Below are positions 46,245 to 63,985 of a stretch of DNA of 64,000 nucleotides, piece after piece. The stretch's first letter is position 1; every line of letters starts with the position of its first letter. The notes beneath the pieces were generated by a model. The model had not been told where the DNA came from. It was given only the letters and a program-made list of their open reading frames with translations, and did no database searches. Source of the DNA: an uncultured bacterium (GTDB lineage: Bacteria; Krumholzibacteriota; Krumholzibacteriia; Krumholzibacteriales; WJIX01). The stretch spans positions 2,971 through 66,970 of the forward strand of contig CAZKNG010000003.1 in the NCBI GenBank assembly GCA_964554125.1. The letters run 5' to 3'. A program made the translations under genes and the position numbers.

Positions 46245-48236
46245 TTATTCCACGATCGTCGGAGTAACGAAAATCACAAGTTCCTGTTTTTTCTTCGACT
46301 TTGAGGAGGATGAAAAAAGGGCGCCCAGATAAGGTATATCTTTCAAAAAAGGTATGCCTCTTCTTACACTCGTGTCAAGCTTCTTGATCAATCCGCCGAT
46401 AATTGCCGTTTCTCCGTTTGCAACTTCGACCCTCGTGTCAGCTTCAGCGGTAGCGATTATCACGCCGCCCTGCTGAGTTGACTCGGTCTGAAGCTCACTT
46501 ACCTCGGGATGGAGGTCAAGAGTGATGGTTCTGTCTTTATTTACGTGCGGAATAACTTTAAGCATTATTCCAATCTTTGTAAGCTCTGTTAAAGGGTTTC
46601 CGGCTTCATCCGCGACGATTAGAGGTATCTCTTTTCCAACCAGTATAGTGGCTTCCCTGTTTTCCATAGTGGTAATCCTGGGATTGGAGATTATATTTGC
46701 ATTATTTTTCTCTTCCATCATCTGAAGAATTGAATTAAGTTCTCCCCACGATTGAACACTGCCGATCTTGAGCGTCCCGCTTGTAAGGGGAAGGGCTTCA
46801 TCCACACCGGCACTTCCGATAGCGTTGACATCGGATTTATGAAGGTTCAGCAAATCCCACTTAATTCCAAGCTCGCGTTTCGCTTCAACATCCATCTCAA
46901 CCAGTTTAGCGTTGATATTAACTTGTACATGTTTAGTATCGAGTTCTTTTACAATCGCCGATACTTTATCAAGATTCTCTTCTATATCGTTAATAATCAA
47001 GGTGTTGCTTCCAGGATCAACATCGATTTTACCCCGTTTGCTTACTACATTCTTCAGGGCGTCACCGATCTCTTCCGCGCTTGAATTATCTACAAAAACA
47101 ACCCTCGTTTTCAGGGGAAGGAGATCCTTCTCTTTGTTCTTAGCACTTTTCTGATCAAGTTCTTGACGGAGCAAACGCTTACTTTCACCGACTCTTATCA
47201 TCCCGTACTCTTCCCTGTAACCGTATCCATGGGCTTTCAGAATAACTTCGAGAGCTTCCTGCCAGGGACAATCTTTTATATGAACAAAGACATCTCCCTC
47301 TACATCATCACCCGGAACGATATTAATATCGGCATAATGTGAAATTGTCTGAAGAACCGTTTTAATATCAGCCCCCTGGGCATCCAGAGTTATTCTTTTC
47401 GATCCCATAGGTATACCGGATCCAGCAGCCGGAGCTCCCCTGACATATGATTTTGACCAGGGAAGATTCTCAAACTTCACGCGCGGGGCGGAATTATTAA
47501 CATCTATTTCACTTCCTGAACTCGATATTACGGTTTGGTTTTCCGCGACGCGGCTTATATCCGCGGTATCACCACTGTTTTCTTTTTCGATCCAGGGAGA
47601 ATCAACCTCATCTTCATCCTTTTTGATATTTCTGTCAGCATCACTCCTGTTTTCTATTTTGTCATCGTCTGACAGATTAACCGCTGAATGATTCTCTTCT
47701 ATCACAGGTTTTATATTCTTTTCATTCTTATCTTCTGTTTCGGAAAGTTCCCGGACTTCACTTACGGGATCCGGAGCAGCAACACTATTTTCTGTTTTAC
47801 TGTCATTTAATGAAATATCAGCGTCATCAGCCCCGTTCGTATCAGAAATAAGCAGGACCTGTTTATTATTAATTTCGAAAATACGATGATTTACACTTTT
47901 TTTCAGGTCAAATACAAGTCTGCTTACAGGCACGGGGTCCGTTTTGAACTGGCTCGTTCTCACTCTGTATATCAACCGGGATTCGGTTTGATATGTAGAT
48001 TCATCCAACCTGTTTGCCGCGCCCACACAATCGACAACAAGCCTTTTCGGATCATCGGTAAAGAAAAGTTTGAATTCGATATCACCTGACTTGGCAATCT
48101 CGATTCTCAAATCTCCGTTTGCTTTCATGATCTGGAGGTTCTTAATTTCCCCCGCGGTGTCAGATGCCTCTAAAAGATTAATAGGGACAACAACCATAAC
48201 CAGTAATATCAATGTTAATTTGAGAAACTTCTGCAT
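46245..48236 (-). CDS. pilQ: Type IV pilus secretin PilQ
   Basis: It has a signal peptide, N-terminal AMIN-like domain, a long acidic linker and a C-terminal secretin domain (…RRGIPFLKDIPYLGALFSS…LVIFVTPTIV). The start is taken at MQKFLK (AAGGAG RBS 7 nt upstream) rather than the track's 48260. Confidence 0.85.
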   Translation of the reverse strand: MQKFLKLTLILLVMVVVPINLLEASDTAGEIKNLQIMKANGDLRIEIAKSGDIEFKLFFTDDPKRLVVDCVGAANRLDESTYQTESRLIYRVRTSQFKTDPVPVSRLVFDLKKSVNHRIFEINNKQVLLISDTNGADDADISLNDSKTENSVAAPDPVSEVRELSETEDKNEKNIKPVIEENHSAVNLSDDDKIENRSDADRNIKKDEDEVDSPWIEKENSGDTADISRVAENQTVISSSGSEIDVNNSAPRVKFENLPWSKSYVRGAPAAGSGIPMGSKRITLDAQGADIKTVLQTISHYADINIVPGDDVEGDVFVHIKDCPWQEALEVILKAHGYGYREEYGMIRVGESKRLLRQELDQKSAKNKEKDLLPLKTRVVFVDNSSAEEIGDALKNVVSKRGKIDVDPGSNTLIINDIEENLDKVSAIVKELDTKHVQVNINAKLVEMDVEAKRELGIKWDLLNLHKSDVNAIGSAGVDEALPLTSGTLKIGSVQSWGELNSILQMMEEKNNANIISNPRITTMENREATILVGKEIPLIVADEAGNPLTELTKIGIMLKVIPHVNKDRTITLDLHPEVSELQTESTQQGGVIIATAEADTRVEVANGETAIIGGLIKKLDTSVRRGIPFLKDIPYLGALFSSSSKSKKKQELVIFVTPTIVE

Positions 48237-48237
48237 C

Positions 48238-48711
48238 TTAATCTCCTTTTTCCTTCTCACCCTCTAGGTTCAGAGTTATACTGTTAGTTTGTCCGTACGA
48301 TCTTACTCGCGCTATCAGGGAACGTTCTGAAACGGAAACAATACTCCCATTCCTTATCGGATCCCCTACCTTTAATATATGACCAATTCCATTTCTGTCT
48401 TCGAGCATGGCGTATTTTTCCATTCCTCCGGAAAGCACACCAACCAGGCTGACCTTCTGGATATTAATAAGATCGGAGCTGCCTTCCTCAAAATCGCCGG
48501 ACACAAGGCTCTGAAAGGGGTCTCTGTGGTTAAACGCCTGATAATAATAATGTTTTGTTCTAAGATTATCCTGTCCGTCTCTCTTTTCCGCCGCAAAAGC
48601 TGTCTGGGGCAGCAGTAATCCCAGAAAAATTAAATAAACCGTTAATCTTTCCCATACCACTGAGGTATTATCAGGATTTGTCTTTATTCTTAACATCCGA
48701 AATCTCACCAC
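48238..48711 (-). CDS. pilP: PilP-like pilus assembly lipoprotein/periplasmic protein
   Basis: A ~150 aa signal-peptide protein located between pilO and pilQ. The assignment is by position and size. Confidence 0.5.
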   Translation of the reverse strand: MVRFRMLRIKTNPDNTSVVWERLTVYLIFLGLLLPQTAFAAEKRDGQDNLRTKHYYYQAFNHRDPFQSLVSGDFEEGSSDLINIQKVSLVGVLSGGMEKYAMLEDRNGIGHILKVGDPIRNGSIVSVSERSLIARVRSYGQTNSITLNLEGEKEKGD

Positions 48712-49288
48712 CTTTCAGAAGTGTATAGGCAGTCATCGTCATTTGCGCTTCAATTGTTCTGGTTTTTCCTACTCCACCGTCATCTTTATTATCAAAAGAG
48801 GATATTTCCATATCAGATACATTAACAATACGGTCCAGATTTGCCACTTTCGATAAAAATATGCCCACCTGGTGATATCTCCCCTTTACTCTTATATTTA
48901 TCGGATTTTCGGCAAAAAAGTCCTTTCTTATCCTCCGCTTAGGTTCGAAAAGGGTAAAATTAACACCTGCCTGATTTCCGGCCATCGTTATCTTTCTCAG
49001 CAATCCGGCTATCTCATCCTCTTCGGGCAGTAATTTAAGCGCAGCGACCCATTTCTCGTGCAATCTGTTGTATTCTGTCTCCAGCGCCTCAAGATTACCG
49101 ACAGTTTTTCTGGCTTTTTCGAGTTCTGTGCTTACCTTATCATATTCCCTCTTAAGCGATTCTTCCTTCGCCGCCCGCGGTTTGTATAAGAAAGGCATGA
49201 AAGAAGTAAAGAAATAAACATAGGCGATCATAGCCAGAAACATACCTATCACCATTGATTTTTGTACCTGTGGATCTTTTAAATCCAT
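48671..49288 (-). CDS. pilO: Type IV pilus assembly protein PilO
   Basis: 205 aa with a single N-terminal TM helix, a coiled-coil and a periplasmic domain. It follows pilN. Confidence 0.7.
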   Translation of the reverse strand: MDLKDPQVQKSMVIGMFLAMIAYVYFFTSFMPFLYKPRAAKEESLKREYDKVSTELEKARKTVGNLEALETEYNRLHEKWVAALKLLPEEDEIAGLLRKITMAGNQAGVNFTLFEPKRRIRKDFFAENPINIRVKGRYHQVGIFLSKVANLDRIVNVSDMEISSFDNKDDGGVGKTRTIEAQMTMTAYTLLKGGEISDVKNKDKS

Positions 49289-49306
49289 CGTTTCTACCTC
49301 TTTCCG

Positions 49307-49861
49307 TTATTGCGGTATTGCATTGCCCACTAAAGAAAACTTCATTACTTTATTATTGTGTATCGTCCCTTCCTCCACCACACTCAGATCTACCTTTGTA
49401 AATAAGGAAGATCTCTCCAGATTTGTCATCATATCCGCTACTTTGTAGTTGTTAAAAGTAATGCCGTCAATAGCATACTCTTTCGAAGAAAGCTCAGTTA
49501 TACCGGTAAGCCAGCAGTTTCCGGGGATTTTCATACTGATATCATTCAACAATCTTACCCTGAAGAACCGATATTTATCGAGCGAAGTAATAAGCTGGAG
49601 TCTTTTATTAACCTCTCCGCGCTCCTTTGTGATCTTCTTTATTTTTGCCAGTTGCGGAGCAAGCTTTCTGGATTCCTTACGAGCGGTTTTTATCTTTTCT
49701 TCAAGATCGGCTATCCTGTGGCCCTGTATAAAACTGAAAGCAAGTATGCCCCCTATGACAATTAAAACCACACCAACCATATATACCGACGACATATCGG
49801 GAAGATTGAAACTGCGTTTTTTATCCCTGTCCTCAGGTGGCAGCAGATTTATTCTAATCAT
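49307..49861 (-). CDS. pilN: Type IV pilus assembly protein PilN
   Basis: 184 aa. It begins MIRINLLP (the conserved PilN INLLP motif), followed by one TM helix. Confidence 0.8.
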   Translation of the reverse strand: MIRINLLPPEDRDKKRSFNLPDMSSVYMVGVVLIVIGGILAFSFIQGHRIADLEEKIKTARKESRKLAPQLAKIKKITKERGEVNKRLQLITSLDKYRFFRVRLLNDISMKIPGNCWLTGITELSSKEYAIDGITFNNYKVADMMTNLERSSLFTKVDLSVVEEGTIHNNKVMKFSLVGNAIPQ

Positions 49862-50934
49862 TATTCCCCCGCCTTTCTCAGAGCGAGACCAATGCCCACT
49901 GTAAGTAATGGCGCTATCTCGTTCAAATCCTCTCCATATTCAGTGAAAATCCCTTCATCAAAATCGATCTGGGAAAGAGGATTATGTATTAAAAATTCAA
50001 TGTCATGTTTATCCGAAAGTATTTCCTGTAAGAACGGAAGCCTCGCGCCCCCGCCGCTTAGAATAATTTTATCAATTTTATCCGCGTCACCGGCAGCCTT
50101 GAGGAAGGAAATACTCCGCTCTATTCCCAGAGACAGTTCTTTTGCCTTCTTTCTGAATATTTCCTTTACGGATTCCTCGTCTATATCACCGAGGTCACCT
50201 CTTACGACTCGCAACGCCTCTTCATAGTCGAGACCTTGTTCCTTCTGAAGCTCCTCGATAAAACTGCTGGTTCCCACACTGATATCTCTGGTAAAATGGG
50301 GGCTGTCGTTTTGAATTATATTTATATTGGTTACATCACTGCCGATATTTACAAGCCCTACAACTTCATCTTCCTCTTCTTCGCTTGAAGTGTAGTTTTC
50401 TTCAAAACTGTTCTGCAGGGCAAAAGAGTCAACATCAATAATCTCCGGGTTTAACCCAGCGTCTCTGATAAGTTCAGCGTAATCTGTAACCATATCTTTT
50501 TTAGCCGCAACCAGCAAAACTTCCATCTGATTGGCGCCGATATCTTCATCAAGTATTTGAAAATCAAGACATACATCGTCAATATCAAAAGGAACGTGCT
50601 GCTCAGCTTCCCAGAATATTGCTTCCGCGGCGTCTTCAGCTGTCATTTTGTCCATAACAATTTTTTTAACTATAACCGCGCGTCCTGATACGGCGGAGAC
50701 AACATTCTTCCCCGTGATCCCGGACTTATCGACGCATTCCGAAATAGTTTCTACCACGAGGTTCCTGTCCATAATTTCATCTTCCACGATTGCTTCCGGC
50801 AGGAGTTTGCTTATACCAAAATGGACTATCCTCGGTATCTGTTCAGAATGTTCTATTTCAACAACCTTAATCAAACTGGAACCAACATCAATACTGATCG
50901 TTGAAGGTTTTTTCTTAAATGGTAAAGATATCAT
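49861..50934 (-). CDS. pilM: Type IV pilus assembly protein PilM (actin-like ATPase fold)
   Basis: It has …IDVGSSLIKVVEIE… and an actin/FtsA-like fold. The start is taken at ATG 50934 (MISLPF, AAGGA RBS) rather than the track's TTG at 50976. Confidence 0.8.
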   Translation of the reverse strand: MISLPFKKKPSTISIDVGSSLIKVVEIEHSEQIPRIVHFGISKLLPEAIVEDEIMDRNLVVETISECVDKSGITGKNVVSAVSGRAVIVKKIVMDKMTAEDAAEAIFWEAEQHVPFDIDDVCLDFQILDEDIGANQMEVLLVAAKKDMVTDYAELIRDAGLNPEIIDVDSFALQNSFEENYTSSEEEEDEVVGLVNIGSDVTNINIIQNDSPHFTRDISVGTSSFIEELQKEQGLDYEEALRVVRGDLGDIDEESVKEIFRKKAKELSLGIERSISFLKAAGDADKIDKIILSGGGARLPFLQEILSDKHDIEFLIHNPLSQIDFDEGIFTEYGEDLNEIAPLLTVGIGLALRKAGE

Positions 50935-51040: not shown

Positions 51041-51055
51041 GCAACATATGTGCCA
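51041..51055 (-). promoter_or_regulatory. Sigma-54 -24/-12 promoter upstream of pilM
   Basis: The minus strand reads TGGCAC-ATATG-TTGC, a perfect match to the consensus TGGCAC-N5-TTGC. It lies ~100 nt upstream of the pilM ATG. Confidence 0.6.
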
Positions 51056-51172: not shown

Positions 51173-51946
51173 TTAATAAAAATTCAGAAAGTACCAGCTG
51201 ATAAAAAAATCCCCCAGTAGCAGACAGAGAATCCCCGCGGGCGCGAGGAACGATCCAAAAGGAACAGCTGTCCTGCCGGTCCCCCCTTTGCGTAAGAGGA
51301 AAATGCCATAAAGAGCTCCAAAGAATGAAGCGACAAGTATAACGGGTAACACAAGTCTTATTCCAAGAAACGCCCCTATCATGGCCATAAGTTTAACGTC
51401 CCCTCCACCCATACCCTCAGTCTTTCTAAAAGATTTATAAGTTAAACCCACAAGATAGAGAGAACCGCCTCCTGCTAAAGCGCCGTAGAAAGAACTCGAT
51501 AAAGCGATATCTGTACTTAAATAAGCCCATATGAAACCGATCAGTATAAACGGCAGACTGATCGAATCGGGTATGATTTTGTGCTCCCAGTCTATCAATG
51601 TAACGGCGATAAGGGACATAATAAACGGATATATAAATAATAGATCCAGGGTGAATCCCGAATAATAAAAACAGAGTAGGGCCAGAATCCCGCCAGAAAG
51701 CTCAATAAACGGATACCTCGGAGATATTTTCTTCCCGCAGCCGGCGCACTTCCCCTTAAGAAATATATAGCTTAAAAGGGGAATATTCTCGTACCACCTT
51801 AATACGCGCCGGCAGGCAGGGCAGGAAGACCTGGGGCGTATAACAGATCCGCCTCTGGGTACCCTGTATATAATCACGTTAAGAAAACTTCCGGCCGCGA
51901 GACCGGCGGTGAAAATGAATATTAACGCTACGGGATTCGTATTCAA
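51173..51946 (-). CDS. pilD: Prepilin peptidase (A24 family)
   Basis: 257 aa with the Cys-tetrad zinc region (SSCPACRRVL…CAGCGKKIS) and a polytopic membrane core. Confidence 0.85.
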   Translation of the reverse strand: MNTNPVALIFIFTAGLAAGSFLNVIIYRVPRGGSVIRPRSSCPACRRVLRWYENIPLLSYIFLKGKCAGCGKKISPRYPFIELSGGILALLCFYYSGFTLDLLFIYPFIMSLIAVTLIDWEHKIIPDSISLPFILIGFIWAYLSTDIALSSSFYGALAGGGSLYLVGLTYKSFRKTEGMGGGDVKLMAMIGAFLGIRLVLPVILVASFFGALYGIFLLRKGGTGRTAVPFGSFLAPAGILCLLLGDFFISWYFLNFY

Positions 51947-52614
51947 TCTTTTTCTTTCTTTGAAAGTTTCTTTTCAAGTTTTTCAATATAACCCGCTGCC
52001 AGATCATCCATGAAGGGATCGTTCGAGCTATCGGCCAGTCTTCTCCACATATTTATACTTGTTTCGACATCTCCGCCCCTGGCCGCGGCGCTCGCCGCGA
52101 AACGCATTGCCCGTTCATCGGCGCCGGGCATATCCGCGGCAAGTCTGAAATAGCGCTGAGATTCCTTATAATCATTCCCGTCGAGGTAATAGAGAAATCC
52201 TGCTTCGAAGGCCAGCGACCACTCCGCGGGATTATTTTCAATCCCTTTCCTTAGAATCTCAATCCCTTCCTCTAACTCCCCGAGGTCCTGAGCCATAATG
52301 ACAGCACTGAGTTTGTAAGCAAAGATAAACCGTGGATCGAGATCTGTTATTACATCGGCAAGATGGCGAAAGAGTCTCAAGCTGTTCTTTCCCATCCTGT
52401 AACCGCCGTAATACTGCACCGTCTTAAACCATAAAATATCTGAAACAATATTTCTGTAACCCAGAGAGAACATTCTTACCGCTTCACTCGAGGGAAGGTA
52501 CATGATATCGGCTTTTCTATTCCTGCCGCTTATTCCTTCCACACTCTTAGATACCCCCACAAGCAGCAGGGCAGCCGCTATTATAAACAGAGTATTTCTA
52601 AATAGTCCCTTCAT
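51943..52614 (-). CDS. TPR-repeat protein with signal peptide
   Basis: It has TPR-like helical repeats (…AFEAGFLYYLDGNDYKESQRYFRLAADM…). The start is taken at MKGLF. Confidence 0.6.
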   Translation of the reverse strand: MKGLFRNTLFIIAAALLLVGVSKSVEGISGRNRKADIMYLPSSEAVRMFSLGYRNIVSDILWFKTVQYYGGYRMGKNSLRLFRHLADVITDLDPRFIFAYKLSAVIMAQDLGELEEGIEILRKGIENNPAEWSLAFEAGFLYYLDGNDYKESQRYFRLAADMPGADERAMRFAASAAARGGDVETSINMWRRLADSSNDPFMDDLAAGYIEKLEKKLSKKEKD

Positions 52615-52621: not shown

Positions 52622-53392
52622 TTACACAAACTCTCTTTTTCGGAAAATAAAACAGGAGAAATATATAATAACAGAGCAATAAACGATCGCGTAACCTACT
52701 GTGATCATAATATCTGAATACTGAAAATTCATTCCGTGGACCGCTTCATGACGCAGATTGAAAAGATTGAGATTCGGCAGGATATAATAGAAAGCATCTA
52801 CGATAAATTTCATCGCCTGTGAACCGAATTTCTCAGCGAAAACACGCAGATCGCCGCTCAAACTTCCGGCGACAAAGATACACAGAGTGAAAAAGAATGT
52901 CAGAATAGGGGACGTAAATGTGCTGAATAATATTACAATCGAAGTTATAACGGCCATTTCAAGAAGAGAAAGGAAGATGGCGGCGAGTATCCCCGCCGTT
53001 ATACTGCCTCCGCTTAGTACAACAACAACAACCGTTACCGCGGCCATAATGATAACCATCATTGTAAGAGCGGCCATTATACCAGAAAACTTCCCGATAA
53101 GATATTCCAGCCGCGTGACAGGTCTTGTAAAAATCATATATACAGCTCTTTTGTCTACTTCCTTGTGCAGAAGTGTGCTTCCGGAGACAACCGCTGTAAA
53201 AATGCCGAAAAGTGAAATAAACGCCAACGCCACGTCTGTTATTATCTTATCCTTTGCCGCGCCGACAGAAAGGGGAGAAAGTATATATGTGCTGATAATC
53301 AGGATCACTCCGAAAAAAAGGACTATATAGAGGAGTTTGCCCCTGATTAATTCGCGGAATGTATTAAACGCTATATTTGCTATTCTTTCCAT
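52622..53392 (-). CDS. ABC-2 type transporter permease (PilI-like position in the pilus cluster)
   Basis: It is polytopic with 6 predicted TM segments. The start is taken at MERIANIAF, which has a perfect GGAGG RBS 6 nt upstream. Confidence 0.7.
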   Translation of the reverse strand: MERIANIAFNTFRELIRGKLLYIVLFFGVILIISTYILSPLSVGAAKDKIITDVALAFISLFGIFTAVVSGSTLLHKEVDKRAVYMIFTRPVTRLEYLIGKFSGIMAALTMMVIIMAAVTVVVVVLSGGSITAGILAAIFLSLLEMAVITSIVILFSTFTSPILTFFFTLCIFVAGSLSGDLRVFAEKFGSQAMKFIVDAFYYILPNLNLFNLRHEAVHGMNFQYSDIMITVGYAIVYCSVIIYFSCFIFRKREFV

Positions 53393-53420: not shown

Positions 53421-54401
53421 CTAAATCGAACTTTCAACCCGGGCTTTATCAGAGTCAACCGCGGATTTTATCTCCTTATCCTGTTCTGTGATCTCATTTA
53501 CAAAGATCTCTTCCAGAGAGTATTTAACGGAAGCAACCTTGATTATCTCAGAGCCTTTATTTAATAAATACTGCAGGACACTCCGTGTATATTCCTGCTT
53601 TTTTACAACCAGAAAGATCTTATCGCCCACTCTCTTTACAGAATCCGTATATTGAGCCACAATCTTCTCCCCGTCACGCGGAAACGCTTGCGCTGTTATA
53701 TCAAGCTTTCCCTTCCCAATCCTGAAAAGTTCATCGAGCCCGGCATCTTTTACTATCTTCCCCTTACGGATAATACAAACCCTGTCGCAAAGAGTCTCCA
53801 TATCGGAGAGTATATGCGATGAGAAAAATATCGTTTTACCCTTCTTTTTAAGCTCAAGAAGAAAATCCCTGGTCATTTTTCTTCCCATGGGATCAAGTCC
53901 GGAGAATGGTTCGTCAAGTATCAGCAGATCCGGATCATGAATTACAGCCTGAGCAAGCCCGGCTCGCTGCAGCATACCCTTTGAAAAACCGCTCAATCTT
54001 TTTTTCCCGTCTCCCGCCAGACCTACCCTGCTTATGACCTTCATTATGCTGTCATTTAATTCTTCTCCGCCGATACCGCTCATCTTCCCGCAAAACTTAA
54101 GGAATTCCTCGAGCGTGAGGTGCGGATAAAAGAATGGGTTTTCAGGTAGAAAACCTACCGCTCTTTTCGTATGAGTATCCGAGATAGATCTGCCTAGCAC
54201 ACTGACATTTCCCGAATCAGGTTTTATGAGCCCGAGAATAATCTTTATCGTGGTTGTTTTTCCCGCTCCGTTAGGTCCAAGAAATCCGAGAATCTCTCCC
54301 TCGCCGGCGGAAAAGGAGATGCCACGTAGAACCCTGCTCTTCTTGAGCATAAAATTACCCCGGAAGGTTTTTACTATATCTTCGACACTTAGAATCTTCA
54401 T
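53421..54401 (-). CDS. ABC transporter ATP-binding protein (PilH-like position in the pilus cluster)
   Basis: It has Walker A (GPNGAGKTT), an ABC signature (LSGFSKGMLQR) and Walker B (LLILDEP). The start is taken at MKILSVEDIV (AGGTGG RBS) rather than the track's 54449. Confidence 0.85.
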   Translation of the reverse strand: MKILSVEDIVKTFRGNFMLKKSRVLRGISFSAGEGEILGFLGPNGAGKTTTIKIILGLIKPDSGNVSVLGRSISDTHTKRAVGFLPENPFFYPHLTLEEFLKFCGKMSGIGGEELNDSIMKVISRVGLAGDGKKRLSGFSKGMLQRAGLAQAVIHDPDLLILDEPFSGLDPMGRKMTRDFLLELKKKGKTIFFSSHILSDMETLCDRVCIIRKGKIVKDAGLDELFRIGKGKLDITAQAFPRDGEKIVAQYTDSVKRVGDKIFLVVKKQEYTRSVLQYLLNKGSEIIKVASVKYSLEEIFVNEITEQDKEIKSAVDSDKARVESSI

Positions 54402-54565
54402 AAATTTAAACCACCTGTAGATCTCTCTTCCGGATGGCCCCGGAGCCATATTAAACTCTAAATAAATACCTGACGCATAAAATCTTTACATCCACAATTA
54501 AAACCCGGCAAATATTCTGCCTTTAAGAGGTACTTTCTTAACATTTTTTTCTCTATTGCATTTAT

Positions 54566-54581
54566 TGCAGATATTATGCCA
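54566..54581 (-). promoter_or_regulatory. Sigma-54-like -24/-12 promoter upstream of the ABC transporter genes
   Basis: The minus strand reads TGGCAT-AATAT-CTGCA (GG-N10-GC spacing is correct, but the -12 element is CTGC rather than TTGC). Confidence 0.4.
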
Positions 54582-54712
54582 AAGTGGGCCTATAGTGTAA
54601 AGGGGTGTCACCTTATGAAAAGGGGCACCCTTGTTAGTTTATATTTCTTCCTGTAAGTTCCGGTAACCAAACTATTTTAAGGCTGAAGGTGTGTAAAATT
54701 CGTTAATAGAAT

Positions 54713-55891: not shown

Positions 55892-56174
55892 ATTGAATAC
55901 CTCGCGTTCATATTACATGATAGAATACAATATACTTACTTGAAAAGCAAACTTTATTTTAGGGGCGGGCATGGATTTCTGATCCGCCCCGAACAGAACG
56001 ATCAGAAAGAACGAATCATAGGCTTATAAAACGCAGTTTTTCCGCGGTGGAAAGAGGCCGCGCCTCTGACAATGCCGGTCAGCGGATAGAAACCCTGCCG
56101 ATTTTATGGGATCATTAGAAGTCTTTTTGTAAAGTGCTGACAAACAGGCATGCTGCCGGCTTTGTAGCCATAAA

Positions 56175-56204
56175 TCAAAAACGGGCGGCCCGTGTGAGCC
56201 GCCC
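56175..56204 (-). terminator. Rho-independent terminator downstream of pilA
   Basis: The minus strand reads GGGCGGC-TCACACG-GCCGCCC followed by TTTTTGATTT. It lies ~30 nt after the pilA stop. Confidence 0.65.
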
Positions 56205-56230
56205 GCAGCAATGCTAAACTTTGCTCTTTC

Positions 56231-56665
56231 TTACTGTCCGCTCGTTAATGTAATTACCAGTTCTCCGGCATCTTCACCGCAGCCGGTAATAGTATAACCC
56301 ATTGAAGTTCCTGAAGCGTTTGTGGTATCATCGTAACCTGTCTGGCCAGCTGTGGCGGCAGTTCCATCCACCGGTTCCGTGGCAGCGTTGGTAAATGGAT
56401 TTGACAGGCTAGTACCGCCGGGCAACAAATCAACCAAATCTTCGCCATTCGAAAGGGTAGTTGATAGATCTGCAGCATATACTCCGTTATTCTGTACGGC
56501 AAAATCTTCGGCCGCCAGCTGAACTGTATGGCAGTTTGACTTAACCGAAGCCTCTTTCGCTCTCGACTGCATACTGATAAAGTTAGGAATAGCAATCGCG
56601 GCTAAAATACCGATAATCACAACAACGATCATAAGCTCAATCAGCGTAAAACCCTTGTTATTCAT
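56231..56665 (-). CDS. pilA: Type IVa major pilin PilA
   Basis: 144 aa. The N-terminus MNNKGFTLIELMIVVVIIGILAAIAIPNF is the class III signal peptide (G|FTLIE), with C-terminal Cys residues. It has a GGAGG RBS. Confidence 0.9.
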   Translation of the reverse strand: MNNKGFTLIELMIVVVIIGILAAIAIPNFISMQSRAKEASVKSNCHTVQLAAEDFAVQNNGVYAADLSTTLSNGEDLVDLLPGGTSLSNPFTNAATEPVDGTAATAGQTGYDDTTNASGTSMGYTITGCGEDAGELVITLTSGQ

Positions 56666-56785: not shown

Positions 56786-56801
56786 GGGCAATTTATATGC
56801 C
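56786..56801 (-). promoter_or_regulatory. Sigma-54 (RpoN) -24/-12 promoter upstream of pilA
   Basis: The minus strand reads TGGCAT-ATAAA-TTGCC (GG-N10-GC). It lies ~120 nt upstream of the pilA ATG and downstream of a palindrome AACGTTA-N15-TAACGTT (56821-56849). PilR next door is a sigma-54 activator. Confidence 0.6.
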
Positions 56802-56927
56802 AAAGAGCACGCGGGATCCATAAACGTTAATCCTTTGTCTCATATAACGTTATACCAGCACCGCGGTTAATACGTATTACCGTGGATTGTAAATTGCCAT
56901 TTCGCACTCCAGCTATGCAACGGTTCA

Positions 56928-58310
56928 TTATTCCGACCCCACCTTCTGTCCTTCACGGCTCAGTCCGTAACGCTGGATTTTCCGGTAAAGTGTTGACGCG
57001 TTGATCCCTAATATCTCACTGGCCTTCTTCTTCTGCCATCCCGTTTCATCGAGAACTGAGATGACATACTCCTTTTCAAGCTCCTCGAGAGTTATCTTCT
57101 CCCTGTCTAAACTCAGCTTCCTTTTACTTCTCGAATGAAAACGTATCTTGTCCGGCAGGTCATGGGGTTTTATTGTATCACCCTCCTGGAGTACAATGGC
57201 CCGTTCAATTATATTTTCCAGTTCACGTACATTCCCGGGCCAATCGTAATTTACCATCAGTTCCAGCGCTTTGTCTGAAATTGTCTTTTTTCTTTTTGAT
57301 TTTTCAGATGCCATCTTAAGAAAATGTTCGACAAGAAGAGGTATGTCACTCGACCTGTGCTTGAGCAGAGGAATCTTTATAGGTATAACGTTCAAACGGT
57401 AATAAAGATCCGGACGGAAATTGCCCGCACGCACCTCTTCTTCGAGATCCGCGTTGGTTGCCGCGATTAAACGCACATTTACTTTTATGGGACTTGTCCC
57501 GCCAACAGGTACTATTTCTCTTTCCTGAAGAACCCTCAGCAGCTTAACCTGAATCGCAGGTGATGTTTCCCCGACTTCATCGAGAAAAAATGTCCCCCCG
57601 CATGCCACCCTGAACAATCCATCCTTGTCTCTGATCGCTCCGGTAAAGCTCCCCTTGACATGTCCGAAAAGCTCACTTTCAAGAAGATTCTCCGGCAGAG
57701 CCCCGCAGTTAATGGAAACAAAGGGTTTATCAGACCTGTTGCTTTCATGGTGAATTGACTTTGCTACAAGCTCCTTTCCCGTTCCACTCCTCCCTCTTAT
57801 AAGAATAGTACTGTCGGTGGCGGCAACCTTTTTTACCCTCTGAAAAACCTTCTGCATCGGTTCACTCTCACCTATAATATTCTTATAACTGTCCTTTTTT
57901 CTCTGCTTCTTATTTATATAGGCATTTTCATTACTGGTTCTACGCGCCTCAACCGCGTTATGAACTATCATCTTTATTTCATCATTCTTTGCCGCCCTTT
58001 TAACCATATAGTGAAAAGCGCCTTTATTAAGAGCGTCAATCGCTGTCTTCTGTGAAGCGTAAGCGGTCATAATTATGACGGGAAGGTTCGGCTTGTGGCT
58101 TTTCACAGCTGAGAGAACTTCAATGCCGTCAATCCCCTTCATTTTTATATCGGTCATAACGGCGTCATATTCCGCCTTCTTTATCTCCGATATGGCTTGC
58201 TTACCGCTGCTGACCGTTTTAACCTTATACCCTTCCTTCTTGAGCATTATTGAAAGGTATTTACACATACTCTTTTCATCATCAACTATTAATACTCTCT
58301 CGCCTGCCAT
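56928..58310 (-). CDS. pilR: Sigma-54-dependent response regulator PilR (NtrC family)
   Basis: 460 aa with a receiver domain (LIVDDE…D), an AAA+ sigma-54 activation domain (GESGTGKE-like GRSGTGKELVA; ESELFGH; GAFTGA-like GSFTGA) and a C-terminal HTH. Confidence 0.85.
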   Translation of the reverse strand: MAGERVLIVDDEKSMCKYLSIMLKKEGYKVKTVSSGKQAISEIKKAEYDAVMTDIKMKGIDGIEVLSAVKSHKPNLPVIIMTAYASQKTAIDALNKGAFHYMVKRAAKNDEIKMIVHNAVEARRTSNENAYINKKQRKKDSYKNIIGESEPMQKVFQRVKKVAATDSTILIRGRSGTGKELVAKSIHHESNRSDKPFVSINCGALPENLLESELFGHVKGSFTGAIRDKDGLFRVACGGTFFLDEVGETSPAIQVKLLRVLQEREIVPVGGTSPIKVNVRLIAATNADLEEEVRAGNFRPDLYYRLNVIPIKIPLLKHRSSDIPLLVEHFLKMASEKSKRKKTISDKALELMVNYDWPGNVRELENIIERAIVLQEGDTIKPHDLPDKIRFHSRSKRKLSLDREKITLEELEKEYVISVLDETGWQKKKASEILGINASTLYRKIQRYGLSREGQKVGSE

Positions 58311-58313: not shown

Positions 58314-60056
58314 TCAAAACCTCCCGCATTCTATGCTGCTAAGTTCATGTTTAACCTCTTCGATTCCTATTCTTCCTCTTTTATCCTCAACCGGAATCAG
58401 AATCCTGAACGTTACTCCTTCTTTCAAATTTTCAGCACTTATCGATCCTGAATGACTTTCGATAATCCTCCCGGCAGTAGCAAGACCTAATCCCGTGCCG
58501 CCGTCCTTAGTTGTAAAGAAAGGTTCAAAGATATGTTCCAGTACATCATCGGGTATTCGCGGACCGTCATTTGTAAATTCTATTTCCGCGTACCTGGTTT
58601 TATCACTGCCTTCTTCGAGCACGTCTTCAACTACTCTGACTCTGATATAGATACTGCCGTCTCTTCGAACAGCTTCACACGCGTTGAGTCCCAGATTGAG
58701 AAAGACCTGCCTGATCTGTTCATCATCGGCATAAATCCTCACTCCTTCAACATCGCTTTCGAAGGTGATATCAGCTCCTCTGTGGAGATAGGATCCGTGC
58801 TTTAAAAGAAGAATTGTTTCTTTCAGACAGTTCTCTATATCTATAGAGTCAAATTCCGGTTTCCGGAGTCTCGCGTATTCAAGAAAATCGGTAATCATTC
58901 CATCGAGCCTGTCTGACTCGCGAATAATCAGATCCATAAGTTCACCGTTCTCTCCGGTAACATCGAGTTCATCCTTGAGCATTTCGGTCGACCCGCATAT
59001 AGACGCGAGAGGCGCCCGGATCTCATGCGCGATTGCCGCAGAAAGCTCTCCAACAGCAGCCATTCTGTCTGATCTTCTTATTTTATCTCTCATCCTGTTT
59101 ACTTCGGTTAAATCCTGAAACAGGGCTACAACACCTTTCTTCTCGTCGACTTCATTTTTCAGAAGTGAAATATTTATACCTATGGGCAATCTTCTCCCAT
59201 CACTCCCTGAAAGTGTTATTTCACCCCTGTTTCGCTGAACTCCGGTTTCCATAACAAGCATCAACTGCTTGAATAGAGGAGTCATTCCCGGAACGATCTC
59301 TTCAAAATGCTTACCCTCGGCAACCACGTTTTTCTCAACTTCCAGGATCCTCCTGGCCGCCGGGTTCATCGAAACAATACAGCCGTCTAAATCTATGACA
59401 ACCAGACCGCTGCTCATATTATTTACAATAGAATCATTATTCAGCTGTATCCTCTTTATCTCTTTTTCCCTGTCGGCCAGTTCCTTTCCGCTTCTTTTTA
59501 CTCTTTTAGAAAAATATCCGCTTATCAGCCCAGTGGAAACGAATACCCCCATATGTATGTATCCTCTAAGTAATGAATCAAAAAGATTCTGCCGCGTAAA
59601 GATGAGCGCCCCCTCCGGAGATCTTACATGACCGCTGATTTCGAGAAGACTGTAGACAATATAAGCCGAGGCCGCTACGAGCGAAGTAACCAATCCTCCC
59701 GAGACGCCAAAATACAACCCGCCTACAAAAATTGGAAGTATATAAAGTATAGAGAAGATTGAGCCGGAACCGCCGCTGTAGTGAACAATAAGTGTCAGAA
59801 CAGCAAGATCAATACCTATCAGAAGACGAATCAGTTTGTTGAATGAAACTCCCTTTCCATGCGCAATATAAACCGCTCCCGTACCCAGATATACCACACC
59901 GAGAAGGCTGTAAAGGGCAATGGCTGACAGTTCTCTGCTTTGAAACTGCAGGGCAATAATAGCCGCTCCTACTATCAGTGTTGCCACAACAATTCTGATA
60001 TAGACTATGTTTCTTATCTTTTCATCATCCCGGTAAGCACGCGGTATAAAATTCAT
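58314..60056 (-). CDS. pilS: Sensor histidine kinase PilS
   Basis: 580 aa with an N-terminal multi-TM domain, a PAS-like region, a HisKA domain (AAIAHEIRAPL) and a HATPase_c domain (GTGLGLA). Confidence 0.8.
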   Translation of the reverse strand: MNFIPRAYRDDEKIRNIVYIRIVVATLIVGAAIIALQFQSRELSAIALYSLLGVVYLGTGAVYIAHGKGVSFNKLIRLLIGIDLAVLTLIVHYSGGSGSIFSILYILPIFVGGLYFGVSGGLVTSLVAASAYIVYSLLEISGHVRSPEGALIFTRQNLFDSLLRGYIHMGVFVSTGLISGYFSKRVKRSGKELADREKEIKRIQLNNDSIVNNMSSGLVVIDLDGCIVSMNPAARRILEVEKNVVAEGKHFEEIVPGMTPLFKQLMLVMETGVQRNRGEITLSGSDGRRLPIGINISLLKNEVDEKKGVVALFQDLTEVNRMRDKIRRSDRMAAVGELSAAIAHEIRAPLASICGSTEMLKDELDVTGENGELMDLIIRESDRLDGMITDFLEYARLRKPEFDSIDIENCLKETILLLKHGSYLHRGADITFESDVEGVRIYADDEQIRQVFLNLGLNACEAVRRDGSIYIRVRVVEDVLEEGSDKTRYAEIEFTNDGPRIPDDVLEHIFEPFFTTKDGGTGLGLATAGRIIESHSGSISAENLKEGVTFRILIPVEDKRGRIGIEEVKHELSSIECGRF

Positions 60057-60079: not shown

Positions 60080-61291
60080 CTAACCTCCGGAAACAACAGA
60101 AATCAATTTAAACATAGGCAGATACATCGATATCAACATTCCTCCAACAATAACTCCCATTACAACAATCATAATAGGTTCTATAGCGGCGGTAAGAGCA
60201 TCTACAGCACTATCTACTTCTTCATCGTAAAAATCGGCTATCTTCTCCAGCATTTCATCGAGAGCACCCGTCTGTTCACCAACACTGATCATTTGAACCA
60301 CCATGGGAGGGAAAACTCCACTCCGTTTAAGCGGTTCGGCGATAGTATTACCCTCGCTGATACTTTCTTTCGTCTTGACAACCGCACTTTCTATGACCTT
60401 GTTGCCGGCTGTTTTAGCGGTTATATCAAGCCCGTCAATAATAGGCACACCGCTGGCAGTGAGAGTACCGAGAGTCCTGGTAAACATCGCAACCGCGCCC
60501 TTTCTTATCACTGCCCCGAGTATGGGTAAATTCAGCAGAAACCGGTCAATTCTCATTTTCCCCTTTTCTGTGCTGTTATATTTCTTAATACCAAAATATA
60601 GTCCAATTCCCGCCCCCAGAAGCAGATACCAGTTAACTCTGAGAAAATCGCTCAACCCCATTACAATTTGTGTCGGCAGAGGGAGAGCACCTCCAAAATC
60701 AACGAACATCTTGGCAAAGGTCGGAATAATAAACATAAGCATAAAAATCGTTGCGCCACCCGCGACAATCATAACTATTGTCGGATATGTCAAAGCTCCT
60801 TTTATTTTACGCCTCAGCGAATCCTGCTTTTCAAGGAAAAGGGCTAATCTATTAAGAATAAGATCCAGGATTCCTCCCGATTCACCGGCGTCTACCATAT
60901 TCACAAACAACTCACTGAAACATTTATGTTTTGACAGAGCCTCGGCTAACGTGGAACCCGATTCAACATCTTCCATAACTTCTGTTACAATTTCTCTGAA
61001 ATTATCCTTTTCCAGCTGGCTTGATAGAATATCGAGGCATTGAACGAGGGGCAGTCCGGCATTAATCATGGTCGCGAACTGACGGGTAAAAATTCCAAGG
61101 TCTTTAATTCCGATCTTCTTCTTGAACCCGAAATCAATATTCAGATCTTTGGGTTTCTGCCTGACCTGAGTAAGAATGATCTTCTTTTTCCGAAGATGAC
61201 TGGTAAGCTCGATCTTGTTTTCAGCTTGATACTCTCCGGAAACATCCTCACCGGCGGGTGTCCTTCCCTTCCATAAATAAGTTGTAGCCAT
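60080..61291 (-). CDS. pilC: Type IV pilus inner-membrane platform protein PilC (GspF family)
   Basis: 403 aa with two GspF-type repeats and 3 TM segments. Confidence 0.85.
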   Translation of the reverse strand: MATTYLWKGRTPAGEDVSGEYQAENKIELTSHLRKKKIILTQVRQKPKDLNIDFGFKKKIGIKDLGIFTRQFATMINAGLPLVQCLDILSSQLEKDNFREIVTEVMEDVESGSTLAEALSKHKCFSELFVNMVDAGESGGILDLILNRLALFLEKQDSLRRKIKGALTYPTIVMIVAGGATIFMLMFIIPTFAKMFVDFGGALPLPTQIVMGLSDFLRVNWYLLLGAGIGLYFGIKKYNSTEKGKMRIDRFLLNLPILGAVIRKGAVAMFTRTLGTLTASGVPIIDGLDITAKTAGNKVIESAVVKTKESISEGNTIAEPLKRSGVFPPMVVQMISVGEQTGALDEMLEKIADFYDEEVDSAVDALTAAIEPIMIVVMGVIVGGMLISMYLPMFKLISVVSGG

Positions 61292-61312
61292 TTACTTCCC
61301 CCTTTGTCTGAA

Positions 61313-62401
61313 TTATTTCCTCATCTGATAGTTTCTTCTTGTATTCTTCTCTCCAAACATCTGTTTAAGCTCTATCGTATCGGGGCTTCTCCTCAGGGCT
61401 TCATTTCTGGCTATTTTCCGGGCAACAGCCGCTCTGTAAAGCGCCTGATTCATTGTCTGCATTCCATGCTTCTGCCCCGCCTGCATAAGCCCGTATATCT
61501 GATGAACCTTGTCATCTCTGATTGTCGCGCTTATTGCCGGAGTGCAAACCATAACTTCAGCCACAAGTACTCTTCCCCTTCCGGATATATGAGGAATAAG
61601 CTGCTGTGTAACAACACCTTTTAAGACAAAAGCCAACTGAGCTCTTACCTGTGACTGCTGAGTCGGAGGGAAATTATCAATTATTCTATTAATAGATTCG
61701 AAGGTGGAGTTTGTATGCAGGGTCGCGAAAGCAAGATGTCCCGTTTCAGCTATTGTCAAAGCGGCCTGCATCGTTTCCCGGTCTCTCATCTCTCCTATTA
61801 GTATTACATCCGGATCCTGACGCAGCACATGCTTAAGTGCCTGAGCAAATGTCTCAGTATCCGCTTTTACTTCCCTCTGATTAACTATACATTTTTTATG
61901 TTTATGTATATATTCGATTGGATCTTCTATTGTAATTACATGCTCTGAGCGTTCACTGTTTATCTTATCAATTATACTGGCAAGGGATGTTGATTTTCCG
62001 CTTCCCGTCGGACCTGTTACCAGAATTAATCCTTTCCTCGATTCAGCAAAATCCTTTACTACGGGCGGAAGACCCAGAGTTTTAAAATCAAGTATTTCAT
62101 ATGGGATTTTCCTGATGGCAATACTTGTTACTCCCCGCTGCTGGTAGACATTCGCCCTAAACCGTGAGAGTCCCTGAATACCAAACGAGAAGTCGAGTTC
62201 CTTGTTATTTTCATATCTCTTCTGTTGATCTTCAGTTAACACACTGTACGCGATCTGTTTGGAAATATCCGGAGTAACAGCATCATACGCGGACGGCACA
62301 ATCTTACCGTCTATTCTGAGAACAGGCGGAGCGCCCGCCGTAATGTGCAGGTCGCTTGCTTTCTTTTCGATCATTTCCTGAAGCAGTGTTCTGAGATTCA
62401 A
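61313..62401 (-). CDS. pilT: Twitching motility retraction ATPase PilT
   Basis: 362 aa with Walker A (GPTGSGKST) and the PilT-type AIRKIPYE and GMQTMNQ motifs. Confidence 0.85.
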   Translation of the reverse strand: MNLRTLLQEMIEKKASDLHITAGAPPVLRIDGKIVPSAYDAVTPDISKQIAYSVLTEDQQKRYENNKELDFSFGIQGLSRFRANVYQQRGVTSIAIRKIPYEILDFKTLGLPPVVKDFAESRKGLILVTGPTGSGKSTSLASIIDKINSERSEHVITIEDPIEYIHKHKKCIVNQREVKADTETFAQALKHVLRQDPDVILIGEMRDRETMQAALTIAETGHLAFATLHTNSTFESINRIIDNFPPTQQSQVRAQLAFVLKGVVTQQLIPHISGRGRVLVAEVMVCTPAISATIRDDKVHQIYGLMQAGQKHGMQTMNQALYRAAVARKIARNEALRRSPDTIELKQMFGEKNTRRNYQMRK

Positions 62402-62428
62402 AATATCCCCTTCTCTTTAAAAATATTT

Positions 62429-63985
62429 TTAATCATCACTTGTTTCCTTCAAAACTTCTTCGACAGAAGTAATACCACTTTTTATTTTATCTACACCGTC
62501 TCTTCTCAAAGTGAACATGCCTTCCTTAACAGCCTGGGTCTTAATCTCAGCGTTTGAAGACCTGTCTAAGATCATTTCCTTTATCCTCCCAGACACAAGC
62601 ATAACTTCATATAATCCTGCTCTTCCTTTGTAGCCTGTGTTGTTGCATCTGGGACATCCAACCGGCTGATAGATCTCAAAATTCGCTTCCTCTTTTTTCA
62701 ACCCGAGCTCTTTGGCCATCTCCGGATGCATTTCAGCTTTTTCCTTGCACTCATTGCATAAACGGCGTACAAGCCTTTGAGCTAATATAAGATTCGTAGA
62801 GCTTGCAACCAGGAAAGGCTCAATCCCCATGTCTATCATTCTGTTTACAGTGCTCGGAGCGTCGTTTGTGTGTAATGTGCTCAGCACAAGGTGCCCGGTA
62901 AGAGCCGCTTTTACCGCTATTGAGCCTGTTTCATGATCTCTTATCTCACCAACCATAACAATATTAGGATCCTGACGCAGAAAAGCCCTCAGAGCTGCAG
63001 CGAAAGTAAGCCCTATCTCCTGATGAACATTAACCTGGTTTATACCATCGAGGTTGTATTCAACCGGATTCTCGGCGGTCATAATATTATGATGCGGTTC
63101 ATTTATTGTGCTTAGAGCGGAATAAAGGGTCGTCGTCTTACCGCTTCCTGTCGGACCGGTTACAAGAACCATCCCGTACGGCGATTTTATCGCTTTAATG
63201 AATTTCTTGTACGAGTTCGGATTAAACCCAAGTTTAGTTAAATCAATCTCAAGGTTGCTCTTATCAAGAATTCTCATTACAATTTTTTCTCCGAATATTG
63301 TCGGAAGTGTACTAACACGAAGATCGATCTTCTTTGACGCGATACGAATCTTTATACGGCCGTCCTGAGGTACTCTTTTCTCCGCAATATCGAGTTCCGC
63401 CATAATTTTCAGCCTGGATGTGATAGCATTCTTCATCCTGTAGGGTGGAGACATCACTTCATGAAGAACGCCGTCAATTCTGAACCTGACCCTCACTTTC
63501 TTTTCGAAGGGCTCTATATGAATATCACTTGCGTTCTTGTTAACCGCGTCTGCAATAAGGGAATTGACCAATTTAACAACAGGAGCATTGGCATTCTGCG
63601 CGTCTTCCAGCCCCAGATCCTCATCCTCTTGTTCTTCGACAATCTCAAAATCTTCTTCCATGTCGCGCATCACTTCATCAAGCGAATCAGCTGAATCATA
63701 GAAGCGGTCTATAGTCTTTTTTATTGAACTCTCTGTTGCTACCACCGGACGAACTTCAAGTCCGGTAATAAATTTAATATCATCTATCGCGAAAATATTA
63801 TCAGGGTTGGACATCGCGACTGTTAACGTTCTTCCATCGCGCCTTACGGGTACAACCTGAAATTTAGTGGCAACCTCGGCAGGGATCAATTCCACAGCCT
63901 GTTCATCCGCCTCGATATCTTCCAGAGCAATTGCCTCTACCTGATAAAGCTGTGAAAGAAATTCTGAGAGCATTTTTTCCGACAA
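62429..63985 (-). CDS. pilB: Type IV pilus assembly (extension) ATPase PilB (GspE family)
   Basis: It has the GspE N1 domain (…LIPAEVATKFQVVPVRRDGRTLTVAMSNPDN…), Walker A (GPTGSGKTT) and a tetra-Cys zinc motif (CNEC…CPRC). The track's start is a TTG at 63985. The frame stays open to the window edge, so the N-terminus may be truncated by the window. Confidence 0.85.
   Translation of the reverse strand: MSEKMLSEFLSQLYQVEAIALEDIEADEQAVELIPAEVATKFQVVPVRRDGRTLTVAMSNPDNIFAIDDIKFITGLEVRPVVATESSIKKTIDRFYDSADSLDEVMRDMEEDFEIVEEQEDEDLGLEDAQNANAPVVKLVNSLIADAVNKNASDIHIEPFEKKVRVRFRIDGVLHEVMSPPYRMKNAITSRLKIMAELDIAEKRVPQDGRIKIRIASKKIDLRVSTLPTIFGEKIVMRILDKSNLEIDLTKLGFNPNSYKKFIKAIKSPYGMVLVTGPTGSGKTTTLYSALSTINEPHHNIMTAENPVEYNLDGINQVNVHQEIGLTFAAALRAFLRQDPNIVMVGEIRDHETGSIAVKAALTGHLVLSTLHTNDAPSTVNRMIDMGIEPFLVASSTNLILAQRLVRRLCNECKEKAEMHPEMAKELGLKKEEANFEIYQPVGCPRCNNTGYKGRAGLYEVMLVSGRIKEMILDRSSNAEIKTQAVKEGMFTLRRDGVDKIKSGITSVEEVLKETSDD

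Follow-up and report, generated by a model that had tools for sequence, protein, structure and literature searches.

The pil locus of Myxococcus xanthus, with its PilG-PilH-PilI trio, was reportedly described by Wu et al. in 1998, and the role of PilGHI in this organism has been a standing question since that year; we take the UniProt entries O30384-6 to be M. xanthus PilG, PilH and PilI. Here we compare this system with a 64,000-nucleotide stretch of DNA (the window hereafter; contig CAZKNG010000003.1 of assembly GCA_964554125.1, positions 2,971 to 66,970 of the forward strand), which contains a chromosomal type IVa pilus (T4aP) locus of a Candidatus Krumholzibacteriaceae bacterium, known as a metagenome-assembled genome (MAG). 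In this locus, an ATP-binding cassette (ABC) ATPase, an ABC-2 permease and a tetratricopeptide repeat (TPR) protein most likely represent the counterparts of PilH, PilI and PilG.

Previous studies have shown that pilA, pilG, pilH and pilI form one operon in M. xanthus, where the annotation of PilG reads 'efflux ABC transporter accessory factor' (PMC3546991). The TCDB entry 3.A.1.144.5 lists PilGHI as the receptor, ATPase and membrane components of a system needed for pilus assembly and PilA export (PMC3924187). Losing any one of pilG, pilH or pilI abolishes pili, and their deletions resemble a pilA deletion in a pilB-WA suppression test (PMC3724824). The clusters of Anaeromyxobacter have been described as organised like that of M. 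xanthus; the T4aP cluster, the PilGHI-type ABC system and its spread within the former Deltaproteobacteria are already known (PMC6060248). Our literature search turned up nothing on the pili of Krumholzibacteriota.

Positions 46245-64000 of the window carry, on the minus strand, pilB-T-C-S-R-A, an AAA_14/DUF4143 gene, the ABC ATPase, the ABC-2 permease, the TPR gene, pilD and pilM-N-O-P-Q. The TPR protein and the DUF4143 protein are each 100% identical to a protein that NCBI assigns to a Candidatus Krumholzibacteriaceae bacterium. An earlier annotation made from the letters and open reading frames (ORFs) of this DNA (the sequence-only reading) had placed 16 consecutive genes here, and the ORF list bears this out position for position, with every one of them on the minus strand. 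It had also put the ABC ATPase and the permease in the slot between pilA and pilD, in agreement with our domain calls and coordinates, and this placement is kept in relatives. The three genes of the trio are:

53421..54401, minus strand: ABC ATPase, putatively PilH-type, 326 residues (ABC_tran)
52622..53392, minus strand: ABC-2 permease, putatively PilI-type, 256 residues (ABC2_membrane_2)
51943..52614, minus strand: predicted membrane-anchored periplasmic TPR protein, most likely a PilG-type accessory in its short form, 223 residues

Over its whole length, the ATPase is homologous to its pil-linked counterpart in Anaeromyxobacter (37% identity, E 3e-68), and the alignment shows intact Walker A, signature, Walker B and H-loop motifs; the permease matches the pil-linked permease of the same genus over its full length (30% identity, E 2e-36). 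The TPR protein likewise aligns end to end with an Anaeromyxobacter counterpart (L083/P0128; 33% identity, E 7e-30), and distant members of its family bear the name Anaeromyxobacteraceae. All three component types, namely an ATPase and a permease of the ABC kind and an extracytoplasmic accessory outside the ABC family, are present in the locus and homologous to pil-linked proteins of Myxococcota. Among solved structures, those nearest to the ATPase are the nucleotide-binding domains of ABCA proteins and NosF (E 8e-45 for NosF); the permease gave zero sequence matches to solved chains, NosY included.

The genomic surroundings of these homologues point in the same direction. On an 826-kb Anaeromyxobacter contig, the TPR gene directly follows pilA and precedes the gene of an ABC2_membrane_2 permease, with the ABC ATPase, pilD, pilS2/R2 and pilMNOPQ on one side and minor pilins and PilY1 on the other, a layout shared by two further metagenomic loci. 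A TPR gene directly after pilA, as in these Myxococcota-like loci, occupies the position of pilG, and one MAG (L090) shows pilins, the TPR gene, a small insert, the ABC ATPase and the permease in succession, which is the G-H-I order of M. xanthus. From the Anaeromyxobacter homology, the pil synteny and the M. xanthus literature, we infer that the TPR protein is most likely the PilG-type component and third partner of the ABC pair, and that the pair itself would be of the PilH/PilI type, the final step to the M. xanthus proteins passing through Anaeromyxobacter. If the TPR protein is counted as third conserved partner, the PilGHI-type set of the locus would be complete and run H-I-G. The TPR and DUF4143 genes had been taken for two extra occupants of the slot; our data do not support this view as it stands, as the former encodes the conserved third partner and the latter is absent from the comparison loci of other species.

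A profile scan with an alignment of the TPR protein, restricted to one genome per species, yielded 151 confirmed loci, and we analysed the best 80 of these 151 by comparing all of their ORFs with the sixteen window proteins by blastp. According to their record titles, these are Krumholzibacteriota, Latescibacterota and Eisenbacteria MAGs, together with a few Fibrobacteraceae, Vicinamibacterales and others; Myxococcus is not among these 80. The arrangement recurs throughout: the TPR gene adjoins a permease homologue in 80/80 loci and adjoins the ATPase wherever the locus extends far enough, and the trio sits between pilA and either pilD or pilM, with pilD as the gene after the TPR gene in ~50 loci and pilM in ~23. 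The whole pilB to pilQ series is found in the window's order, with pilD variable, in 25 loci. Since the trio stands together in the pil slot in every one of the 80 loci, the ABC pair is no chance neighbour of the pilus genes. The same architecture is the rule in several candidate phyla of the Fibrobacteres-Chlorobi-Bacteroidetes (FCB) type, a modestly new result, and the trio accompanies this type of pilus cluster there rather than being a myxobacterial or deltaproteobacterial peculiarity.

Some of these loci have features of their own. Those with Eisenbacteria titles (L055-L078) lack pilD in the slot and have pilM directly after the TPR gene; two or three tandem pilin genes precede their ABC genes, and the C-terminus of their TPR proteins is another short conserved tail (...L.TP.V...). 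Two loci (L035 and L044) gave many fragmentary blastp matches per gene, for example five pieces of pilB, which looks like a frameshift-ridden assembly rather than biology.

The 223-residue TPR protein has no Pfam match. It shows a TPR fold, in which stacked helix-turn-helix repeats form a superhelix, preceded by an N-terminal membrane helix. Its N-terminus consists of basic residues followed by a hydrophobic stretch, and a lipobox cysteine is absent. The sequence-only reading had called the protein secreted; we did not find this borne out. The N-terminus is more likely a membrane anchor than a cleaved signal peptide, and the protein would then be bitopic in the inner membrane and have its TPR domain in the periplasm. 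Homologues are abundant, with 2,723 representatives at 50% identity (E ≤1e-3), or 1,132 at E ≤1e-10, and their alignment contains sharply conserved motifs (W..AVQYYG and TDLDPRF). The clusters of 30 of these representatives included no Myxococcus entry, and a homologue search with the Anaeromyxobacter protein listed Anaeromyxobacter-like proteins only.

Anaeromyxobacter, one locus titled Vicinamibacterales and many metagenomic representatives encode longer PilG-type proteins of ~300 residues (for example L083:10001-10909, which is P0128, as well as L002 and L081). These long forms end in a conserved C-terminal module of ~60 residues, which in an AlphaFold2 model folds into a long helix, a short helix and a β-hairpin. 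Searched as a profile against the PDB, the module gave GspG, the major pseudopilin of the type II secretion system (T2SS), as all eight of its best matches (E 4e-5 to 0.01), in a match that spans the α1-C helix and the 'P-DPWG-Y' strand of the module. Three long-form members reach Pfam T2SSG at E ~1e-3; in a Pfam scan of full-length long-form PilG proteins, T2SSG was not detected. The long forms thus look like an ABC accessory protein whose TPR domain is fused to a pilin-head-like module. This module is absent from the window protein and from all Krumholzibacteriota, Latescibacterota and Eisenbacteria-type loci, so that the pseudopilin-like tail, while no part of the window protein, may offer indirect support for a pilin-directed function of the family. 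PilG-type proteins are one TPR family with short and long forms, which is again modestly new: a probably membrane-anchored component with strongly conserved motifs that in many lineages carries a pseudopilin-like tail.

Pattern matching in the intergenic regions delivered three promoter-like elements and two terminators:

56788..56802, minus strand: sigma-54-type -24/-12 element upstream of pilA, TGGCATATAAATTGC (pattern match)
54567..54581, minus strand: sigma-54-type -24/-12 element upstream of the ABC operon, TGGCATAATATCTGC (pattern match)
51041..51055, minus strand: sigma-54-type -24/-12 element upstream of pilM, TGGCACATATGTTGC (pattern match)
56181..56206, minus strand: predicted intrinsic terminator after pilA (11-pair stem with 9 G-C pairs, T run)
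46190..46220, minus strand: predicted intrinsic terminator after pilQ (14-pair stem, T run)

The elements have GG at -24 and GC at -12 with a 10-nt spacing (TGGCAC-N5-TTGC), and PilR is encoded in the cluster. The pattern TGGCAY-N5-YTGC has three matches in the 64-kb window against 0.2 expected, a number reached by 0/100 shuffles, and all three are intergenic within the pil cluster and on its coding (minus) strand. Among related loci, an element lies between pilR and pilA in 38/45 and an equivalent one upstream of pilM in 42/67; the pilA, pilM and ABC positions together account for 91/132 plus-strand matches in 1.2 Mb of these loci. The closest relative, GCA_034520215.1 (L084), keeps the pilA terminator and has TGGCATAATTTCTGC as its ABC-operon element.

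The cluster appears to be divided into four transcription units. The first would be pilBTC-pilSR; the second pilA alone, which has a predicted sigma-54-type promoter and ends in a strong predicted terminator; the third ABC ATPase-permease-TPR-pilD, with a predicted sigma-54-type promoter of its own; and the fourth pilMNOPQ, again with such a promoter and a terminator. The stop of the TPR gene and pilD overlap by 4 nt, which suggests translational coupling. With PilR encoded in the cluster and three sigma-54-type elements present, the pilA, ABC-pilD and pilM units are most simply read as the three members of one PilSR/sigma-54 regulon. In most relatives the ABC genes start ~130 bp after pilA, and transcription from the pilA promoter probably continues into them, as it does in M. 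xanthus.

We consider the trio most likely to be the counterpart of Myxococcus PilH/PilI/PilG, that is, an accessory ABC machine for the assembly of pilin into pili. In the mechanism that we tentatively propose, and to which we would give somewhat less than an even chance, a PilH2-PilI2 core of the type-V (ABC-2) kind would hydrolyse ATP in the cytoplasm and, by way of the bitopic TPR protein, act at the inner membrane or in the periplasm, either on pilin or on the assembly platform. The trio would work at the same stage as the co-transcribed PilD, where prepilin is processed, and ATP-driven conformational work on a periplasmic or membrane client would be likelier than classical export. A bolder version, which we regard as rather doubtful, makes the trio a widespread, overlooked and near-core module of the Myxococcus/Geobacter/FCB-candidate-phyla class of T4aP, an ATP-driven mechanotransducer whose TPR protein handles pilin. 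If this were true, the GspG-like head of the long forms could dock in the assembly site as a pilin mimic, and the short form in the window would show that the TPR part alone suffices. The predicted operon structure ties the trio to the prepilin peptidase and the promoter type ties it to the PilR regulon; these constraints, together with the phyletic spread and the membrane-anchored TPR component, make a pilin-handling role of PilGHI testable.

Several observations weigh against equating the trio with PilGHI. The link to the M. xanthus proteins runs via Anaeromyxobacter and synteny, not through direct alignment. The sequence-only reading held that the gene order mirrors the M. xanthus locus, which is right for the backbone and the ABC slot; the trio, however, runs H-I-G in the window and G-H-I in M. 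xanthus, and the window lacks the pilS2R2 pair between pilD and pilM. Unlike the Myxococcota accessory, the 223-residue short form has no C-terminal GspG-like module, and therefore its mode of action may differ from that of the Myxococcota proteins. The promoters and terminators are pattern matches only, and an element upstream of the ABC ATPase is present in only 11/60 related loci. We know of no substrate of PilGHI, even in M. xanthus, and ABC-2 transporters typically move glycans or lipids. Furthermore, xapD, a pil-adjacent ABC ATPase of Geobacter, has been tied to exopolysaccharide (EPS) and described as a sugar exporter (PMC5585712).

The last two points belong to an alternative in which the transporter exports something other than protein, for example EPS, a lipid-linked glycan or a sugar that modifies pilin. 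Pili would need this substrate only indirectly, and the TPR protein would serve as a periplasmic adaptor. Besides the ABC-2-type permease, it can draw on the ATPase, whose best curated family matches are GldA and DrrA (both under the NCBIfam cut-off) and whose nearest solved relatives are the lipid-handling ABCA proteins, and on one MAG (L090) in which polysaccharide synthesis genes follow the trio. However, no glycosyltransferase or flippase is conserved beside the trio in the 80 loci, where the constant neighbours are pil genes only, and the pseudopilin-like module of long-form PilG points to pilin rather than to a glycan. In M. xanthus, the EPS defect of pilG/H/I mutants is suppressed by pilB-WA (PMC3724824), and therefore the transporter is not needed for EPS export itself. 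We judge glycan or lipid export to be unlikely and retain the reading of the trio as a pilin-assembly machine.

A different alternative concerns the gene between pilA and the ABC operon, whose product might have joined the pilus system of this lineage as a functional component, for instance by regulating pilin or the ABC machine or by serving either of them as a chaperone. The features in question are:

54713..55891, minus strand: AAA_14 plus DUF4143 ATPase, 392 residues (Pfam E 7.8e-27 and 5.2e-44)
54425..56176, minus strand: block without blastn match to the closest relative, holding the DUF4143 gene (blastn breakpoints)

The gene has the same strand as its neighbours and a GC content that matches the host, and the pilA-DUF4143-ABC arrangement is fixed in four independent assemblies of the species, which shows that it is not a mis-assembly. 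Nevertheless, searches by blastp and tblastn detected no DUF4143 homologue in 96 comparison loci except in four re-assemblies of the same species (L092-L095, obtained after the main locus set), and no second copy by tblastn within the 64-kb window. At the equivalent position in relatives, where the sequence-only reading had left its presence to be checked, the gene is absent from the comparison loci outside its own species. This includes the closest relative, which is otherwise collinear with ~90% DNA identity across the flanking pil genes and has pilA, a 629 bp spacer and the ABC ATPase with no gene between them. The block replaces ~550 bp of unrelated spacer in that genome; its blastn breakpoints lie at window position 56177, just past the pilA terminator, and at 54424, while inspection by eye puts the return of similarity near 54590, at the sigma-54 element. 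The gap between pilA and the ATPase is ~1830 bp in the window; among 58 relatives its median is 130 bp and the widest one measures 750 bp.

Since the DUF4143 gene lies behind the pilA terminator and ahead of the sigma-54-type element of the ABC operon, it would be a unit of its own and leave the pil operons uninterrupted; a pattern search of the 64-kb window revealed no sigma-54-type element of its own. The best non-identical homologues are 57-63% identical and come from the unrelated Brocadiaceae, Thermodesulfobacteriota, Syntrophaceae, Desulfomonilia and Thermoanaerobaculia, within a huge family of at least 8000 matches. The protein matches PADLOC PDC-S01 (E 1.3e-89), with faint C-terminal PD-(D/E)XK-type matches, and shares with PDC-S01 and COG1373-type ATPases an AAA_14 domain followed by DUF4143, making it a member of a candidate anti-phage family; PDC-S01 is itself a candidate defence system only, and the window gene has no flanking defence genes. 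At the block we found no convincing direct or inverted repeats, target duplication, or shift in GC or GC3 that would mark a mobile element. By these comparisons a part in the pilus is very unlikely, and the DUF4143 gene is evidently a recent, species-specific and incidental insertion outside the pilus machine, and it matters solely as a case in which a candidate defence gene has settled in the variable spacer beside a pilin gene. A second case of a foreign gene landing in the slot is the small 23S_rRNA_IVP-family gene (L090:11023-11382) between the PilG-type gene and the ABC ATPase of the MAG with the G-H-I order.

Very improbable as well is a generic DrrAB-like efflux pump located in the pilus cluster by coincidence and without a pilus function, for even though NCBIfam has no PilH/PilI-specific model, the ATPase stays under the cut-off of every named family and ABC homologues occur in almost all bacteria (PMC6060248), the neighbourhood is kept in 80/80 loci, whose labels span at least four candidate phyla, as well as in Myxococcota, an obligatory third partner accompanies the pair with pilins in every context examined, the predicted operon is shared with pilD under a sigma-54-type promoter like those of pilA and pilM, and M. 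xanthus genetics favours a pilus function (PMC3724824, PMC3546991). Jointly, the three identifications made here, of the locus as T4aP, of the trio as PilGHI-type and of the DUF4143 gene as an unrelated insertion, can be held with good confidence.

The remaining genes of the locus are those of a T4aP system:

62429..64000, minus strand: pilB, extension ATPase (T2SSE E 1e-147, MshEN; 5' end beyond the window edge)
61313..62401, minus strand: pilT, retraction ATPase (T2SSE E 5.6e-49; 60-82% identity in most related loci)
60080..61291, minus strand: pilC, platform protein (T2SSF, two stretches, E 2e-68)
58314..60056, minus strand: pilS, sensor histidine kinase (PAS, HisKA, HATPase_c; weak 6TM_PilS match)
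56928..58310, minus strand: pilR, sigma-54-dependent response regulator (Response_reg, Sigma54_activat, HTH_8)
56231..56665, minus strand: pilA, major pilin, 144 residues (N_methyl E 9.5e-10)
51173..51946, minus strand: pilD, prepilin peptidase (A24_N_bact, Peptidase_A24)
49861..50934, minus strand: pilM (PilM_2 E 1.9e-63)
49307..49861, minus strand: pilN (PilN E 1.5e-14)
48671..49288, minus strand: pilO (PilO E 1e-36)
48238..48696, minus strand: pilP-like, 152 residues (position between pilO and pilQ, conservation, sub-threshold PilP match)
46245..48248, minus strand: pilQ, secretin (AMIN, Secretin_N, Secretin; TIGR02515)

Pfam and NCBIfam assignments agree with the earlier description of a complete cluster, comprising ten core T4aP genes and pilSR in a Myxococcus/Geobacter-type order; the ten core genes as defined by Sharma et al. 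(PMC6060248) are present as a full set in the window. PilB and PilT are separate ATPases and are joined by the PilC platform, PilMNOP, the PilQ secretin (301.6 bits against TIGR02515, cut-off 284) and PilD. PilA, which begins MNNKGFTLIELMIVV, has a class III (N-methyl) signal and a hydrophobic α1-N, and its N-terminal 55 residues match NF041775 (typeIV_PilA_Myxo) under that model's cut-off. The PilP call draws on a sub-threshold match (E 0.011) and on the retention of the gene between pilO and pilQ in relatives; the protein has a signal peptide, and a lipobox cysteine is absent. The start of pilB had been placed at 63985, but this TTG lies inside the gene: no stop codon interrupts the frame up to base 64000, and the closest relative has a homologue of 564 residues, hence the gene is truncated by the window end, with ~46 codons falling outside. 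Gene calls in relatives back the starts of the ABC ATPase (54401), permease (53392), TPR gene (52614), pilM (50934), pilP (48696) and pilQ (48248). No minor pilin, PilY1 or pilotin gene was found in the cluster, where pilA encodes the sole N_methyl protein, or among the scanned flanking ORFs, which are housekeeping; they must be encoded at other sites of the genome, which is the case in many species and leaves T4aP membership unaffected. The cluster itself is ordinary, and the basic picture of T4aP is unchanged.

The flanking genes include an rsmD-like gene, coaD and an aminotransferase gene downstream, with a fab cluster, rnc, dprA and others further away; in Myxococcus-type clusters, the upstream neighbour of pilB is ribF (PMC6060248). 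The dprA gene (window 35878-36990; DNA_processg_A and DprA_WH) lies ~9 kb from the pilus cluster, which may matter if the pilus takes up DNA, and a full-length bacterial serpin is encoded at 40032-41315. A 736-residue protein at 17921-20131 has the domains DUF4954 and DUF6819. Positions 1-11000 form a block of low GC content (0.28-0.36, compared to ~0.44 elsewhere) with genes for two GT9 heptosyltransferase-like proteins, one GT1 and two GT2 proteins, a Glyphos_transf protein, a DUF1015 protein and a B12-binding radical SAM enzyme, and this block is probably a variable lipopolysaccharide or surface-polysaccharide island.

Taken as a whole, the locus resembles the M. xanthus pil locus in its backbone of pilB-T-C-S-R-A, pilD and pilMNOPQ, in the trio of ABC ATPase, ABC-2 permease and accessory protein outside the ABC family that lies between pilA and pilD, and in a pilA gene with a predicted sigma-54/PilR-type promoter. 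It differs in that its ABC genes stand behind the predicted pilA terminator with a promoter-like element of their own, whereas M. xanthus has a single pilA operon, and it belongs to a different phylum. At the protein level, the comparison was made through Anaeromyxobacter.

Outside pilus biology, the maturation of N2O reductase is served by NosDFY, an ABC-2 type complex that includes a periplasmic partner. Our trio is similar in that NosF is near its ATPase, its ABC-2 permease has no large periplasmic loops and its periplasmic partner is obligatory; it is dissimilar in that this partner is a TPR protein instead of the β-helix protein NosD, and that the permease has no match to NosY. No copper or N2O reductase genes were found in the pil cluster or among the scanned window ORFs. 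By analogy, the likeness to NosDFY suggests that ATP drives work on a client in the periplasm and not export in the classical sense.

The clusters of Desulfuromonadales, Bdellovibrionales and Deferrisoma come closest in overall form, each being one large cluster in a Cystobacterineae-like order that includes pilGHI homologues (Sharma et al. 2018, PMC6060248). A 14-kb insert reported in some Desulfuromonadales was not found by blastp or tblastn in the 91 loci screened; in contrast, the only insert in the window is the single DUF4143 gene. In that survey of 66 outgroup genomes, the arrangement was seen only in 'Deltaproteobacteria' (PMC6060248), whereas our comparison extends it to MAGs titled Krumholzibacteriota, Latescibacterota, Eisenbacteria and Fibrobacteraceae, and to one titled Vicinamibacterales.

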